A DNA stretch of 24,135 nt from Candidatus Micrarchaeota archaeon (GTDB lineage Archaea > Micrarchaeota > Micrarchaeia > Micrarchaeales > CABMGC01). The stretch spans positions 1 through 24,135 of the forward strand of contig JAJYFQ010000001.1 of NCBI GenBank assembly GCA_021785375.1, read 5' to 3'. The position numbers and the translations under genes are program-made. The notes beneath the pieces were generated by a model. That model was not told the origin of the DNA, searched no databases, and worked only from the letters and a program-made list of their open reading frames with translations. Shown here in pieces: positions 2,473-7,984 of this stretch. Numbering within the stretch: the stretch's first letter is position 1; the number at the start of each line of letters is the position of its first letter.

Positions 2473-2561
2473 CTCCTCCAAATAAGGGCAGTGAGCACGC
2501 TGGACGGGCTACGGCGATTGTAATTAAAGCCTTTCTATCTGAATATAAATCGGCAGTGACC

Positions 2562-3875
2562 ATGAAGGATGAGGACTTTTACGAACTGGAACTGAGCGTA
2601 TTCAGCGCACTCGAGGGCAAACTCGCTAACATGACCTCCCAGGGCGAGATAGATCAGTACGTGGAGCGGATCGTCAGATCTATCCATCCGACCATAGCGA
2701 AGGAGGAGCTCGACAGGATAGTAAGCGACGCAAAGACATTTGCCCCGATAGACAACTACCTGTCCGATGAGAAGATCGAGGACATAATGGTGAACAACAC
2801 CACCAACATATTCGTATACAACACCGACCTCGGAGACGTGAAGGTGCCGGAGGCTATAAAGGACAAGAAGGGGCTCGCGCTCTTCGTGGCAAAGATGAAG
2901 ATGTACAACACCACCTCTGCGGCAAACAGAAACATATTCGATGTCCATCTTCCAAACGGATCAAGGTCCAACATAGTTGATTCGCCACTGGGGCCGGACA
3001 TAACGATCAGGAACTTCAAGAACAGGGCGCTCAGCATAATAGACCTTATCAACGTAGGGGAGATGAGCTACAACCTCGCCGGAAGACTGTGGCTATACGC
3101 CGAGGGCCTGAGAGTAAGGCCGGCCAACCTGATGTTCGGTGGCATGCCCGCATCAGGGAAGACGACGCTGCTCAATGCGATGTTCAGCTTCTTCCGGCCG
3201 GAGACGAGGGTCGTGGTCATAGAAGACACGTACGAGCTTAACACCACGACGCAGGAGAACTGCGTGAGGCTCGAGACCAGCATAGACGTTACCATGGCCG
3301 ATCTGGTAAAGAACTCCCTGAGGATGAGGCCGGACATGATAATGGTGGGGGAGGTCAGGGGCGCCGAGGCGCAGGACATGATGACCGCGATGAACATCGG
3401 CAAGGTCGGCATGTGCACGCTTCATGCGAGCACCAGCAGGGACGTCGTCACGAGGCTCGAGTACGCGCCCATGAACATAGACAAGGAGATAATACCGCTA
3501 ATAGATGCCATAATAGTCGTGTCAAGGGTCAGCGAGGACAACAAGTATGCGAGGAGGATAACACAGGTCTCGGAGATATCCGGAATAGAGACCCAGGTCC
3601 TCCTCTCCGACCTCTTCACCTACGATTACAAGACGCACAAGGGCTCTGACATCCTACCCAGCATAACGTACAGGGACACGCTCTCGGCGCTCACCGGATT
3701 CCCTCCAAACCAGATCATACTTGAGGAGAGGCGGAGGGCTAAGATCCTGGAGAAGCTAAACGAGCTGGGGGTGAGGGATCTCGCCGCGATAAACGAGTAC
3801 TGCAAGGAGTACTATGACAATCCTGCTAAGGCGCTTGCGAAGATCGACCTCAAGAGCCTTGGAACCCTGGAGTGA
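2562..3875 (+). CDS. Type IV pilus/secretion assembly ATPase (TadA/CpaF/VirB11/FlaI-like)
   Basis: Walker A GMPASGKTT, Asp box VVVIEDTYEL, Walker B LRMRPDMIMVGEVRG, His box CTLHA, and N-terminal EDIMVN motif. ATG 2562 is preferred over GTG 2556. Confidence 0.93.
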   Translation: MKDEDFYELELSVFSALEGKLANMTSQGEIDQYVERIVRSIHPTIAKEELDRIVSDAKTFAPIDNYLSDEKIEDIMVNNTTNIFVYNTDLGDVKVPEAIKDKKGLALFVAKMKMYNTTSAANRNIFDVHLPNGSRSNIVDSPLGPDITIRNFKNRALSIIDLINVGEMSYNLAGRLWLYAEGLRVRPANLMFGGMPASGKTTLLNAMFSFFRPETRVVVIEDTYELNTTTQENCVRLETSIDVTMADLVKNSLRMRPDMIMVGEVRGAEAQDMMTAMNIGKVGMCTLHASTSRDVVTRLEYAPMNIDKEIIPLIDAIIVVSRVSEDNKYARRITQVSEISGIETQVLLSDLFTYDYKTHKGSDILPSITYRDTLSALTGFPPNQIILEERRRAKILEKLNELGVRDLAAINEYCKEYYDNPAKALAKIDLKSLGTLE

Positions 3876-3887
3876 CAGGCGAGTAAG

Positions 3888-4877
3888 ATGGAACGTGCGA
3901 TATCTACGTCCGGGAACAAAGCACATCGCATAACGGAATGGCAGTCCGCAACGAGGCACCGGAACCTTTTGGGAAAAGGTTCATCAAAACAGCAGTCTGC
4001 AATGGAGTACCGGAACCTTTTGGGAAAAGGTTCATCAAAACTGCAGAGCGCAATGGAGTACCTGATGACCTATGGATGGGCCATTCTCATTATCGCGGTG
4101 GTCCTCGGGGTCCTCTACTACCTCGGCATATTCAATGGACAGAGTCTCACCCCGCGACTTCAGCCAGGTTCATGCCATGTCGCAAGGACAAGTGCGGGAG
4201 TGGAGAACTTCGGCGTATGCGCGGGCCTTCCGGAGTTCGTGGCGCAGTTCAATGGGGCGAGCAGCTACATAAATACTGGGACTTCATCTTTAGGGAGTGG
4301 AGCAGTCACAATATCGGAATGGATAAATGCGGCATCAGTCCAACAATCTGGAGGGGCAATGATAACAGACTCATTATATGGCGTAGGAACAGTTACATTT
4401 TGGTATAGTTCAGCAGTTGTAATGGGGTTTCGTGGGATCGCCCAATGGCAGACTCCGGCCCAGTCTATTAATGCAAATACATGGTACAATGTAGTTTTTG
4501 TTTATAATGGACAGGGTGCAGGCAGCGCTTCGAATATTCAAATATATATAAATGGCATTTCCCAAACCCTTTCAAATATAGGATCAGCAGGAGGAGCAAC
4601 ATATGATAATTATATTGGAAAAGATAGCAATACCGGTACACATTGGTTTTCAGGCTCTATAGCAAACGTCCAGATATACAACGCCTCCTTATCAGCCGCT
4701 GAGGCAAAGGCACTCTACATGGAGGGAATCGGCGGCGCACCCATAAAACCTGCCAATGTAGTGGGATGGTGGCCCCTCAACGGCAACGCCAACGACTATT
4801 CTGGAAACAACAACAACGGCCAGTCCGTGAATGTGCAGTACACGAACACCTGGCTCAGCAGCTACAGCGCGCCGTGA
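3888..4877 (+). CDS. Class III signal-peptide (pilin-like) protein with LamG/concanavalin A-like domain
   Basis: K-L/QSAMEYLMTYGWAILIIAVVLGVLYYLG has Gln at +1, Glu at +5 and a hydrophobic helix. LamG hallmarks are TISEWIN, WYNVVFVYNG, IYING, IG...FSGSIANVQIYN and VVGWWPLNGNANDYSG. The start is uncertain; in-frame ATG 4002 gives a normal short leader. Confidence 0.88.
   Translation: MERAISTSGNKAHRITEWQSATRHRNLLGKGSSKQQSAMEYRNLLGKGSSKLQSAMEYLMTYGWAILIIAVVLGVLYYLGIFNGQSLTPRLQPGSCHVARTSAGVENFGVCAGLPEFVAQFNGASSYINTGTSSLGSGAVTISEWINAASVQQSGGAMITDSLYGVGTVTFWYSSAVVMGFRGIAQWQTPAQSINANTWYNVVFVYNGQGAGSASNIQIYINGISQTLSNIGSAGGATYDNYIGKDSNTGTHWFSGSIANVQIYNASLSAAEAKALYMEGIGGAPIKPANVVGWWPLNGNANDYSGNNNNGQSVNVQYTNTWLSSYSAP
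3940..4062 (+). repeat. In-frame 51-nt tandem repeat: 30-nt hairpin element x2 alternating with 21-nt QSAMEY-coding blocks x3
   Basis: GGAACCTTTTGGGAAAAGGTTCATCAAAAC is identical at 3961-3990 and 4012-4041; each copy has a perfect 9-bp stem GAACCTTTT/AAAAGGTTC with a GGG loop. Flanking blocks lie at 3940-3960, 3991-4011 and 4042-4062. Confidence 0.95.
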
Positions 4878-6504: not shown

Positions 6505-7984
6505 GTAACAGTTCAAGATTTGTACGGTAACGACGAAACCTCGGATTTCAGGATGTTTGACAGGTTTTCCACATAATTCTGGCCCTGCAATCTGGATGTC
6601 ATGTACAACGACATCTGCATTGCGTAACTATCCATATTGTCCGCCCCTCTGCTCTGCTGACTTATCCTTCTCTTTATGACCAACGGCCTCAATGCACGTT
6701 CCGCCCTGTTGCTGGTGGGGTCAACATCCGTGTATTGGAGGAACGTGAACCACTCCCCATCGAACTTCATGATATAGTTCACTACACGTGCAATGTTCAT
6801 TCCCTCTCTGGGCGCCGACTTCAACAATGCCCATAATCTGTCGTCAAATCTCTTCCTCAGTCTCTCCGAGGCGCCGTGCATCTTCTTTGCCTCCTTTGCA
6901 CTATGGAATAGTCTCGCGAGGCGTTTTACCCATCTCTGATAGGCAGAATAATTCTCGACATCCCCGAAGTCGTATATGGGCTTCTTTGCCCTTCTCAGCA
7001 TGTGAGACCAATCTCTCTGCCTCTCGCACTGGAGTTTGTTGTATCCTGCGTATCCATCCATAATGTCTACTCCTTCTTGGCTTCCCAACTCAACTGCAAC
7101 TTTATGGCTGCGCCTTTCAGTTATCCTGTAATAGACCCAGTCCGTCGTCGCAATTACCCATGCCCAGAAGTTTTTGCCGCAATGTCTGTGTGAGGTCTCG
7201 TCCTTGTATCTTGCAGATGCGGACTTTGCCTTCGCAAGAAGTTCGCCGTAATATGGGCCGAGATACTCTTTCAGTCGTTTCATCGCGTTGGCTATACTCC
7301 CTTCTGAGGCGTTTACCCCGAATAGATGCAGAAGTGATCGTATGTCATCGATAGACATCTTTGAGGCATTGAATAAATATGAAATCAGGACTGTTGTCAT
7401 TATGTCGAACTTTGCCTTCGGGAGGGCGTTCGGAACTGGAGGAGAAAAGACTTTCCCACATCCTTCGCACTGATAGATGTCGCATACATGTTCCACAGTC
7501 TCTGCCTTAGGCAGTTGCACTTCTATCACAATGCGCTTTCTTGTAGAAGTGCCCCTCCTTCTTGCACGCCCTCCGCAATCAGGACAAACGGGCTTCTCCA
7601 ATGAATGGTGTTCGGTCCTGTCAACGTGGTCTGGCCTGGAGTTCCTCTCATTTTCCTTCGGCGGATCCTTCTCCTTGTCGTCATTTCCAGAATATCTATC
7701 GACTGTTTTCTCCAGCTTCTTCAGGTATGGAGGAATGGAGCCGGATGGTGTATTCTCGTTGACGTATTTGCGCAGTTCGTTGGTAAGTCTCCTGACCTCT
7801 TTCTCTAATGCGTCGATTCTCTTCTGTTGCGCTTCAATGATCTCCAATAGTTCCTCATATGTCTTCTTCGTCTGATCGCCAGACTCTATTCGACTATTGG
7901 TATTGAATATTCTGCTGAAAAACTGGTGTAGTGGACGTTTTACCTGTTTGGGGGGGGGTCAACGTAAGATTATTAAACTGTTAC
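6505..7984 (-). mobile_element. IS66-family insertion sequence, single-ORF (ISBst12-like) type, 1480 bp
   Basis: Terminal inverted repeats start with GTAA: GTAACAGTTCAAGATTTGTACG (6505-6526) versus the reverse complement of 7963-7984, GTAACAGTTTAATAATCTTACG, 17/22 identical. They enclose one IS66 transposase. There is no perfect target duplication (GCGAAGTA versus GCAAAATC). Confidence 0.9.
6513..7847 (-). CDS. IS66-family transposase (TnpC-like)
   Basis: 444 aa. N-terminal coiled coil, NTPSGSIPP motif, Zn finger CPDCG...CEGCG, DDE triad KDETSH / MDGYAGY / SNRAERALR. TTG start with GAGGA upstream; the stop lies inside the terminal repeat. Confidence 0.95.
   Translation of the reverse strand: MEIIEAQQKRIDALEKEVRRLTNELRKYVNENTPSGSIPPYLKKLEKTVDRYSGNDDKEKDPPKENERNSRPDHVDRTEHHSLEKPVCPDCGGRARRRGTSTRKRIVIEVQLPKAETVEHVCDIYQCEGCGKVFSPPVPNALPKAKFDIMTTVLISYLFNASKMSIDDIRSLLHLFGVNASEGSIANAMKRLKEYLGPYYGELLAKAKSASARYKDETSHRHCGKNFWAWVIATTDWVYYRITERRSHKVAVELGSQEGVDIMDGYAGYNKLQCERQRDWSHMLRRAKKPIYDFGDVENYSAYQRWVKRLARLFHSAKEAKKMHGASERLRKRFDDRLWALLKSAPREGMNIARVVNYIMKFDGEWFTFLQYTDVDPTSNRAERALRPLVIKRRISQQSRGADNMDSYAMQMSLYMTSRLQGQNYVENLSNILKSEVSSLPYKS

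Follow-up and report, generated by a model that had tools for sequence, protein, structure and literature searches.

A palindromic repeat in the leader of a Micrarchaeota pilin-like gene belongs to a dispersed archaeal family that also occurs in tRNA introns

Next to a secretion ATPase gene of a Candidatus Micrarchaeota archaeon lies a pilin-like open reading frame (ORF) whose 5' end is built as a small array: a 30-nt palindromic element, P, occurs twice without a single difference, set between three copies of a 21-nt block, D, which encodes the presumed prepilin cleavage site and has diverged from copy to copy (D0-P-D1-P-D2). The array lies in a stretch of 24,135 nucleotides (contig JAJYFQ010000001.1, assembly GCA_021785375.1) that we call the window and to which the coordinates below refer. 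The locus raises the question of what P is, and why it has stayed invariant in a leader whose other parts have changed. We found that P belongs to a family of short hairpins that recurs in pilin leaders, tRNA introns, TnpB genes and intergenic DNA of related archaea. [quoted passage not shown] The features of the locus are as follows.

2556-3875, + strand: type II/IV secretion ATPase gene (PilB/FlaI-like), directly 5' of the pilin-like ORF (Pfam PF00437 T2SSE, E 4.8e-33)
3888-4877, + strand: pilin-like ORF of 329 aa (Pfam PF13385 Laminin_G_3, E 6.7e-17)
3939-3959, + strand: D0, a decayed cleavage-site block (WQSATRH), 14/21 identical to D1, all 7 differences being transitions
3961-3990, + strand: P copy 1, read in frame as (R)NLLGKGSSK; hairpin at 3962-3982 plus the tail ATCAAAAC; 48.8 bits with the covariance model
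3990-4010, + strand: D1, the second copy of the cleavage-site block (QQSAMEY), 17/21 identical to D2
4012-4041, + strand: P copy 2, of the same sequence as copy 1; hairpin at 4013-4033 plus tail; 48.4 bits with the covariance model
4013-4063, + strand: 51-nt module, P plus a D2-type block ending in ...GGAGTACCT; identical in contigs C65 and C115 of the same genome, with 2 bases different in contig C49
4041-4140, + strand: D2 and the presumed start of the mature protein, K-L/QSAMEYLMTYGWAILIIAVVLGVLYYLGIF (presumed prepilin peptidase site and following helix); 90-100% protein identity among 7 paralogs

The ATPase gene marks the locus as a type IV pilus-like system. The pilin-like ORF follows after a gap of 12 nt and stays open from the ATG at 3888 to 4877, with a long leader that holds the array, a hydrophobic N-terminal helix (QSAMEYLMTYGWAILII...) and a LamG/ConA-like domain; its N-terminal translation reads MERAISTSGNKAHRITE-WQSATRH-R-NLLGKGSSK-Q-QSAMEY-R-NLLGKGSSK-L-QSAMEYLMTYGWAILII. 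The array spans 3939-4063 at the 5' end of the ORF with an in-frame period of 51 nt, and codon-aligned D2 (LQSAMEY) occupies 4041-4061. Each P copy forms a perfect 9-bp stem with a GGG loop (3962-3970 paired with 3974-3982, and 4013-4021 with 4025-4033), and an identical 30-nt pair is not expected by chance (0 of 100 shuffles). When the two D-P units are compared, all seven differences fall in D and none in P, an outcome with a probability of (21/51)^7, or about 0.002, at an even rate of change, so P has been protected relative to D. An earlier note, made from the letters of this DNA alone, had already described the order of the blocks, the identical P pair with its stem and loop, the period, the invariance of P and the 17 of 21 matches between D1 and D2 (a Ser codon, TCT versus AGC, is among the differences), and in all this it was right. 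It placed the start of the array at 3940, one base late, and for D0 against D1 it gave 15/21 with six differences where we count seven; that all of them are transitions holds. The note had also named an assembly artefact as a way in which its reading could fall. A 62-nt contig from an independent public run of the same mine-drainage study spans 3980-4041 (P-D1-P) with no difference, and therefore the D-P arrangement is not an artefact of this one assembly.

That the ORF encodes a pilin is suggested by the T2SSE ATPase gene next to it and by its own charged leader, Q at +1 and hydrophobic helix. The class III prepilin-type signal peptide family (PF04021) matched neither the window ORF nor any QSAMEY gene of the source genome, so both the pilin and its cleaved leader are read from motif and context. 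A prepilin peptidase would probably cut the leader at the last D, in which case the predicted mature pilin begins with QSAMEYLMTYGW.... We rejected a TTG within P as the true start codon, because TTA stands there in two other genomes (G075 and G078). A CRISPR-like mini-array was likewise rejected: the spacers measure 21-23 nt (not 25 nt or more), are copies of one another and lie in frame inside an ORF. A C-box (UGAUGA) antisense to the tail has no D box and lies on the wrong strand.

To see where else P occurs, we searched the source genome (G000; 863 kb in 143 contigs, 72% complete) by pattern and with the covariance model. Six strong copies were found: two in the window, two on contig C49 and one each on C65 and C115. 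All six lie at pilin 5' ends, each just 5' of a QSAMEY block, in a common layout of a variable upstream cleavage-site block, P, a constant CTGCAGAGC-GCAATGGAGTACCT and the conserved N-terminal helix. Diverged P-like hairpins occupy the same place in three further genes (one on C3, two on C50), and some loci carry older, decayed units still further upstream. Every P-bearing gene of this genome belongs to one LamG-pilin paralog family, and thus the pilin bias of P is explicable by descent and homology-driven spread; about 12 other pilin-like genes have short, unrelated leaders (MRL/Q, MKGKA/Q) and no P. The seven full-length paralogs of the family are 90-100% identical over their first 60 aa, 65-91% over their last 60 aa and 14-29% over the core. 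At the DNA level, identity between the loci is 97% for P, 93% for the downstream D, 80% for the upstream D and 81-87% for the next 120 nt. Specifically, the 51-nt block of P and cleavage-site block is identical, with sharp edges, in three loci whose flanking coding DNA differs by 13-20%, and exactly this block separates the tandem neighbours C115a and C115e, whose stretch from ATG to D is identical at 29 of 29 positions. It follows that the block either arose long after the genes or has a constrained nucleotide sequence. A two-module gene of another genome (G096) was considered as a syntenic counterpart of the window gene and set aside: it is not orthologous, lacks the upstream ATPase gene and has 43% identity.

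Among the related genomes (50-97% complete), a degenerate pattern for the element, with two mid-stem positions left free, matched in 45 of 248 genomes and 21 of the 60 genera of the order; the reversed pattern, used as a control, gave 0. The family is 28-30 nt long, with a 9-bp stem, a 3-nt loop and an AUCAAAA tail. In an alignment of 49 distinct copies, 96.6% of the stem cells are paired and 4 of the 9 pairs are changed on both sides (21 cells), which none of 500 shuffles reached; the 4/18 pair of the element, which the search pattern did not fix, is AU in 31 copies, GC in 8 and CG in 6. The three positions 5' of the stem vary in this alignment, and the conserved end is the 3' tail, A(U/G/C)CAAAA. 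In one congeneric species, a paired insertion gives a 10-bp stem and shifts the frame locally (KPFGKRFHPKA versus NLLGKGSSKL) until a third inserted base restores it, and in G016, of another genus, successive hairpins within one leader are read in different frames. It is therefore the nucleotide hairpin that is conserved, not the peptide. An automatic census of 66 distinct copies assigned 17 to pilin leaders, 14 to tRNA introns, 6 to TnpB and 29 to other places; correction by eye gave about 20 pilin leaders, 16-19 tRNA genes, 6 TnpB genes and about 22 intergenic, unclassified or other copies. Genic copies are all in sense orientation; intergenic copies often stand in tandem with other hairpins of the same tail type and are mostly co-oriented with the upstream gene.

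Across the whole genome collection, the pattern gave 135 matches, with the free stem positions complementary in 128 of the 135. Among the 80 records listed, 64 were archaeal, with look-alikes in many phyla beyond Micrarchaeota; these records came from Micrarchaeota, Iainarchaeota, Nanoarchaeota, Aenigmatarchaeota, ANME-1, Methanosarcinales, Methanobacteriota, Methanocaldococcus and Thermococci. No Rfam family matched P or the intergenic hairpin arrays, and we found no published description of the repeat family in the literature. Bacterial look-alikes are multicopy in Komagataeibacter/Novacetimonas and in a Clostridia metagenome-assembled genome (MAG) (L143, L146, L163, L168, L192, L208, L217; L175, L189, L211, L212), and two of the loci hold inverted pairs spaced by 1.5-2.4 kb, as the ends of an insertion sequence (IS) would be. 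They are probably an unrelated or convergent element.

In relatives, the same 28-mer makes up the bulk of the intron in full-length tRNA genes (50-60 bits with the Rfam tRNA model); the inserts are 31-44 nt long, lie in the anticodon loop and affect at least six isoacceptors. In addition, an intron in the T-loop of tRNA-Arg(UCG) contains the element, as confirmed by in silico removal. Three genomes have a tRNA-Ala(UGC) whose 31-nt intron holds little besides the element. Drawn by hand, its splice motif uses the hairpin as the inner helix, the tail CAAA can pair with UUUG of the anticodon loop to give the 4-bp helix, and AC/A would form the 3' bulge; a strict scanner for the archaeal bulge-helix-bulge (BHB) motif missed this drawing, and the minimum-energy fold does not match it exactly. 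Other tRNAs have a second, tail-like adaptor added that matches their own anticodon loop.

Comparison of TnpB homologues shows a site that is cleanly empty in some and filled in others, the difference being exactly 30 nt and in frame. In these genes the element lies internally, as an insertion some 150 nt upstream of the putative right-end hairpin, and most homologues lack it. In other genomes, the same site holds a different 45-nt double hairpin (L112 and L114 in G220 and G219, versus L113 and L115), which makes the site a hot spot for hairpin insertion, and the region around it is highly conserved at the nucleotide level. At one locus (L072, G183:C50), the first ~25 TnpB codons are joined to the element and the conserved 3' region, in what looks like an internally deleted IS copy similar to a miniature transposable element with inverted repeats (MITE).

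These results bear on what the earlier note had made of P. It had proposed to look for further copies and compensatory stem changes, and both exist. Its suggestion of a REP-like element, or of one resembling palindrome-associated transposable elements (PATE), comes close to the evidence in that P is multicopy with a covarying stem; the features of PATE and IS ends are missing. That P targets pilin leaders is contradicted by the relatives, in which about a quarter of the copies lie in tRNA introns, some in TnpB and a third between genes. The likeness to IS200/IS605 right ends also falls away, since P in TnpB is an internal 30-nt insertion. No clear link to a recombinase or HUH gene, for which the note had advised looking, was found. 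A scar of cassette exchange, the note's own inference, draws weak support from the conserved ends and variable core of the paralogs and from the 51-nt P-plus-D unit common to several loci, and it lacks a linked recombinase.

How might such a repeat have come to stand twice in one leader? P is one member of a dispersed family of palindromic repeats, 28-30 nt long, that many Micrarchaeota carry and that also occurs in other archaeal phyla. We propose that the family persists at places that can bear an additional hairpin at little cost: spacers between genes, a TnpB linker that tolerates it, tRNA introns that splicing removes, and a pilin leader that would be translated and then probably removed by prepilin peptidase. 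In this genus and one other, the hairpin appears to travel with a copy of a 23-nt cleavage-site block as a 51-nt in-frame module. The upstream and downstream D blocks match in exact register in two genera of the family, and in three others no matching D is seen, P standing directly after a Lys-rich start or another hairpin; the module is therefore a lineage-specific elaboration. Since P is flanked by D copies, these could recombine, or replication could slip between them, and a module would thereby be deleted, added or carried into a paralog. Once D-P-D was present, genes with 0, 1 or 2 modules could arise, the window gene having two. Only the 3'-most D would have to stay intact, as a working cleavage site before the hydrophobic helix, and so upstream copies would be free to decay. 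P would be uniform if its copies are young or homogenised, or if the hairpin itself is constrained. The flanking direct repeats vary in length: they measure 14-23 nt in pilins, 2-8 nt in TnpB (CAAAAGAGC ... CAAAAGC) and 9 nt beside a tRNA T-arm, and close to a tRNA-Asp 3' end the element has GGGTTCGAA on either side. Because of this variation, a duplication made by a transposase does not fit, and slippage, template switching or homology-guided copying do.

It is important to point out that several observations weigh against a tolerated, mobile repeat. The C115 pair can be read as an insertion or as a deletion. In the source genome, mobility is not needed, since P is confined to one paralog family in which descent and recombination suffice. 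No enzyme that moves the family was identified: Y1 transposases (PF01797) occur in 127 of 248 genomes and track the repeat poorly (about 60% of repeat-bearing genomes versus 51% overall), and neither a Y1 transposase nor a tyrosine recombinase was found linked to P, the Y1 gene of the source genome lying on C132 and its tyrosine recombinases on C59 and C100. Moreover, the tail of P encodes the Lys at -2 of the presumed cleavage site, and by supplying this codon P in pilins is not merely a passenger. Finally, the identity of P in old, diverged paralogs could equally mean that the hairpin has a host function in the pilin mRNA.

This last point leads to the rival explanations. The hairpin may be a cis-regulatory RNA structure of the host in the 5' coding region of the pilin mRNA, kept by purifying selection for protection from 5'-3' decay, for translation rate or as a processing signal after the co-transcribed ATPase gene, with the copies in tRNA introns and spacers reflecting a shared RNA-binding factor. 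We regard this as unlikely. In its favour, P is invariant at synonymous sites while its flanks differ by 13-19%, and in other species compensatory changes have kept the stems even of tandem units that are old and diverged. All copies run with transcription, most of the intergenic ones with that of the upstream gene, and in some pilin leaders two or three hairpins right behind the ATG make up nearly the whole. Set against these are the roughly 12 pilin-like genes of the same genome that do without P, including the close paralogs C115e and C8, the lack of an Rfam match, and the occurrence of the same 28-mer in tRNA introns and a TnpB linker, which share no expression logic with a pilin leader. 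At the other extreme, the array could be a plain tandem duplication of leader DNA with no special element, the hairpin being a by-product of leader codons rich in K, L, G and S. The in-frame 51-nt period would suit such a duplication, and xLLGKxSSK(A/L)Q resembles K/L/S-rich archaeal pilin leaders such as MRLLKKLISEKGQ in a Methanocaldococcus genome. Yet the nucleotide element is also found outside coding DNA and in other frames, its stem positions covary, all seven unit differences avoid P, and the P-less pilins of the source genome have unrelated short leaders, so that this is hardly credible and the least probable of the explanations. Evidence for a deep homology with the K/L/S-rich leaders of euryarchaeal pilins was not found: those leaders are AT-rich and short, with no convincing hairpin seen.

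The remaining alternatives give P a more active part. As a programmed recombination site for pilin variation, P and D, with the N-terminal helix and the conserved 3' end, would serve as homology arms that swap the LamG core, and the D-P-D array would be the scar or the engine of this exchange. Palindromes provoke breaks and template switches, the paralogs do combine conserved ends with a variable core, and the 51-nt block is discrete and common to several loci. But many synonymous sites (13-19% of bases) differ between the conserved ends of the paralogs, which thus have not been recently exchanged, no recombinase lies near any copy of P, the P-less paralog C115e has the same architecture, and most family members in relatives lie outside pilins; three DNA runs showed no alternative junctions, a weak test since short contigs break inside the repeat. 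We therefore think exchange at P improbable, and the window locus is not evidence for a new pilin-switching system. The module could instead be a BHB intron in the pilin mRNA, excised by a broad-specificity splicing endonuclease of Micrarchaeota, so that removal of 51 nt would restore a standard short leader. In relatives' tRNA genes, the splice motif has the identical hairpin and tail on its intron side, deletion of one module gives exactly the sequence of the neighbouring empty paralog, and endonucleases of the ARMAN type cleave relaxed motifs (PMC3239211). At the pilins themselves, though, the 4-bp-helix exon partner is missing, nothing upstream of P in any pilin being complementary to CAAA; the motif scan paired P with P only, a weak negative because the strict scanner also missed the tRNA-Ala control; all of the roughly 20 pilin copies are in frame and free of stops, as expected if they are translated; and the -2 Lys is encoded by the tail. 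Such an intron is very unlikely in our view. In one metatranscriptome run of the same study, nothing mapped to the window locus, and none of the three runs listed contained this stretch. A broader version of this idea, which we likewise consider a long shot, though a better one than an intron in the pilin mRNA, holds that the hairpin and tail are the intron half of the archaeal splice motif turned into a free-moving module: it would be the whole intron in tRNA-Ala(UGC), would elsewhere seed introns by way of a short adaptor, and its pilin and TnpB transcripts might be bound or nicked by the splicing endonuclease. If true, protein-coding transcripts of DPANN archaea would be processed at the RNA level, and introns would have a concrete route by which they are gained.

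Returning to the palindromic repeat that we favour, its nearest likenesses lie among bacterial elements. REP sequences, with bacterial interspersed mosaic elements (BIME) and REPIN, are imperfect bacterial palindromes of 20-40 nt mobilised by REP-associated tyrosine transposases (RAYT; Y1). P shares with them its size and palindromic, multicopy nature, its tandem arrays between co-oriented genes and its subfamilies with covarying stems. It differs in its archaeal host, in its copies inside genes and tRNA introns, in the absence of the conserved GTAG/CGTC head (the 5' flank of P is variable) and in that no RAYT-like gene was found linked to it, the contig with the PF01797 gene of the source genome carrying no P. 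RPE and intragenic MITEs are dispersed palindromic repeats that often lie in frame in genes and are translated, and also occur in non-coding DNA (PMC10969869). The P family is likewise dispersed, adds an extra peptide in frame and occurs in non-coding DNA, and it shows RPE-like in-frame insertions with empty homologues, of 30 nt in TnpB and of 51 nt in the pilin against its empty neighbour paralog. RPE, however, are bacterial and about 100-150 bp long, and P is a single 21-nt hairpin with a 7-8-nt tail, found in archaea, in tRNA introns and in a probably cleaved pilin segment. The terminal inverted repeats and fixed-length target-site duplications of MITEs are also absent, the only inverted repeat of P being its hairpin and its flank repeats varying. 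Translational-bypass inserts, as in phage T4 gene 60 and the byp elements of Magnusiomyces mitochondria, are hairpin inserts in coding regions. P resembles them as a hairpin insert of about 50 nt with matching take-off and landing flanks (D repeats 51 nt apart), but there is no stop codon behind the putative take-off site, and since the insert is open and in frame in every case, translation does not need a bypass. As described in two later papers, Thermoproteales carry near-identical tRNA introns in different tRNA genes, at canonical and non-canonical positions, which points to intron gain by spread of a sequence (Fujishima et al. 2010, cited in PMC3239211 and PMC4090602). The P family matches this pattern of near-identical introns in different tRNA genes and at both kinds of site, and differs in that it also occurs in protein-coding leaders, TnpB and spacers and in a DPANN lineage, not in Crenarchaeota. 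A typical archaeal BHB intron, with two 3-nt bulges and a 4-bp exon-intron helix, is not seen at the window copies, and no second, different end hairpin accompanies P as in IS200/IS605 ends or PATE. The family thus falls outside RPE and MITEs by size and ends, outside REP by head motif and probably by the lack of a linked RAYT, and outside introns by the splice motif at the window site.

If the repeat is as we propose, ultrasmall archaea carry minimal palindromic repeats in disposable parts such as tRNA introns and prepilin leaders, and in these repeats the DNA from which archaeal tRNA introns are gained and grow would become visible. Such a repeat would also explain why many DPANN pilin genes have odd leaders, long and repetitive, that can lead gene callers and signal-peptide predictors astray, and would show that direct repeats flanking a hairpin can build in-frame mini-arrays. 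The window case is well resolved in this respect, with a sharp 51-nt module, an empty and filled paralog pair and the link to half of a splice motif.

Several further observations concern the locus and its genome. An IS66-family transposase gene lies 2.5 kb downstream of the pilin gene (6513-7847, - strand; PF03050, E 2.2e-31), with no link to the repeat seen. Between decaying upstream D copies (window 3939-3959; C49, C50) and intact ones, most differences are transitions, above all A>G and T>C (5 of 7 in the window). The conserved ends and hypervariable LamG core of the paralogs (window 4044-4877; C49, C50, C65, C115) suggest diversifying selection or core swapping, and the pattern fits a low-GC core at 4262-4665. 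For tRNA-Ile(UAU), the source genome and G054 share exons but differ in the intron hairpin. At G000:C135:2400-2681 (L095), a complete tRNA-Ala(CGC) is followed by a partial tRNA 3' half, a variant hairpin with the tail AATCAGAAAG and more T-arm-like fragments, an array that looks like the remnants of integration or repeat-driven duplication. An intergenic array of nested hairpins on the - strand (G000:C125:200-420, L096) has tails of the types ATCAGAAAG and ACCAAGAAA; G166 (L052), from another family of the order, has a composite array much like it, and Rfam gave no match.

Outside this genome, copies in G214, G227 and G229 (L075, L078, L079) stand directly after a GC-rich, apparently structured stretch that ends in GGGCTCGGG(G)C and has no Rfam match; a motif of this type also lies 5' of the element in a Methanocaldococcus MAG (L138). 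In ANME-1, Methanosarcinales and Syntrophoarchaeum (L152, L159, L166, L191, L196-L198, L214, L216), the hairpin and tail are followed by a recurring ACGCTTCGCAG. Copies in these methane-cycling archaea often sit in the loop of a second hairpin (CTTTCTTT ... AAAGAAAG) with an ACCAAAG tail of its own, and this nesting hints that hairpin loops are preferred targets.

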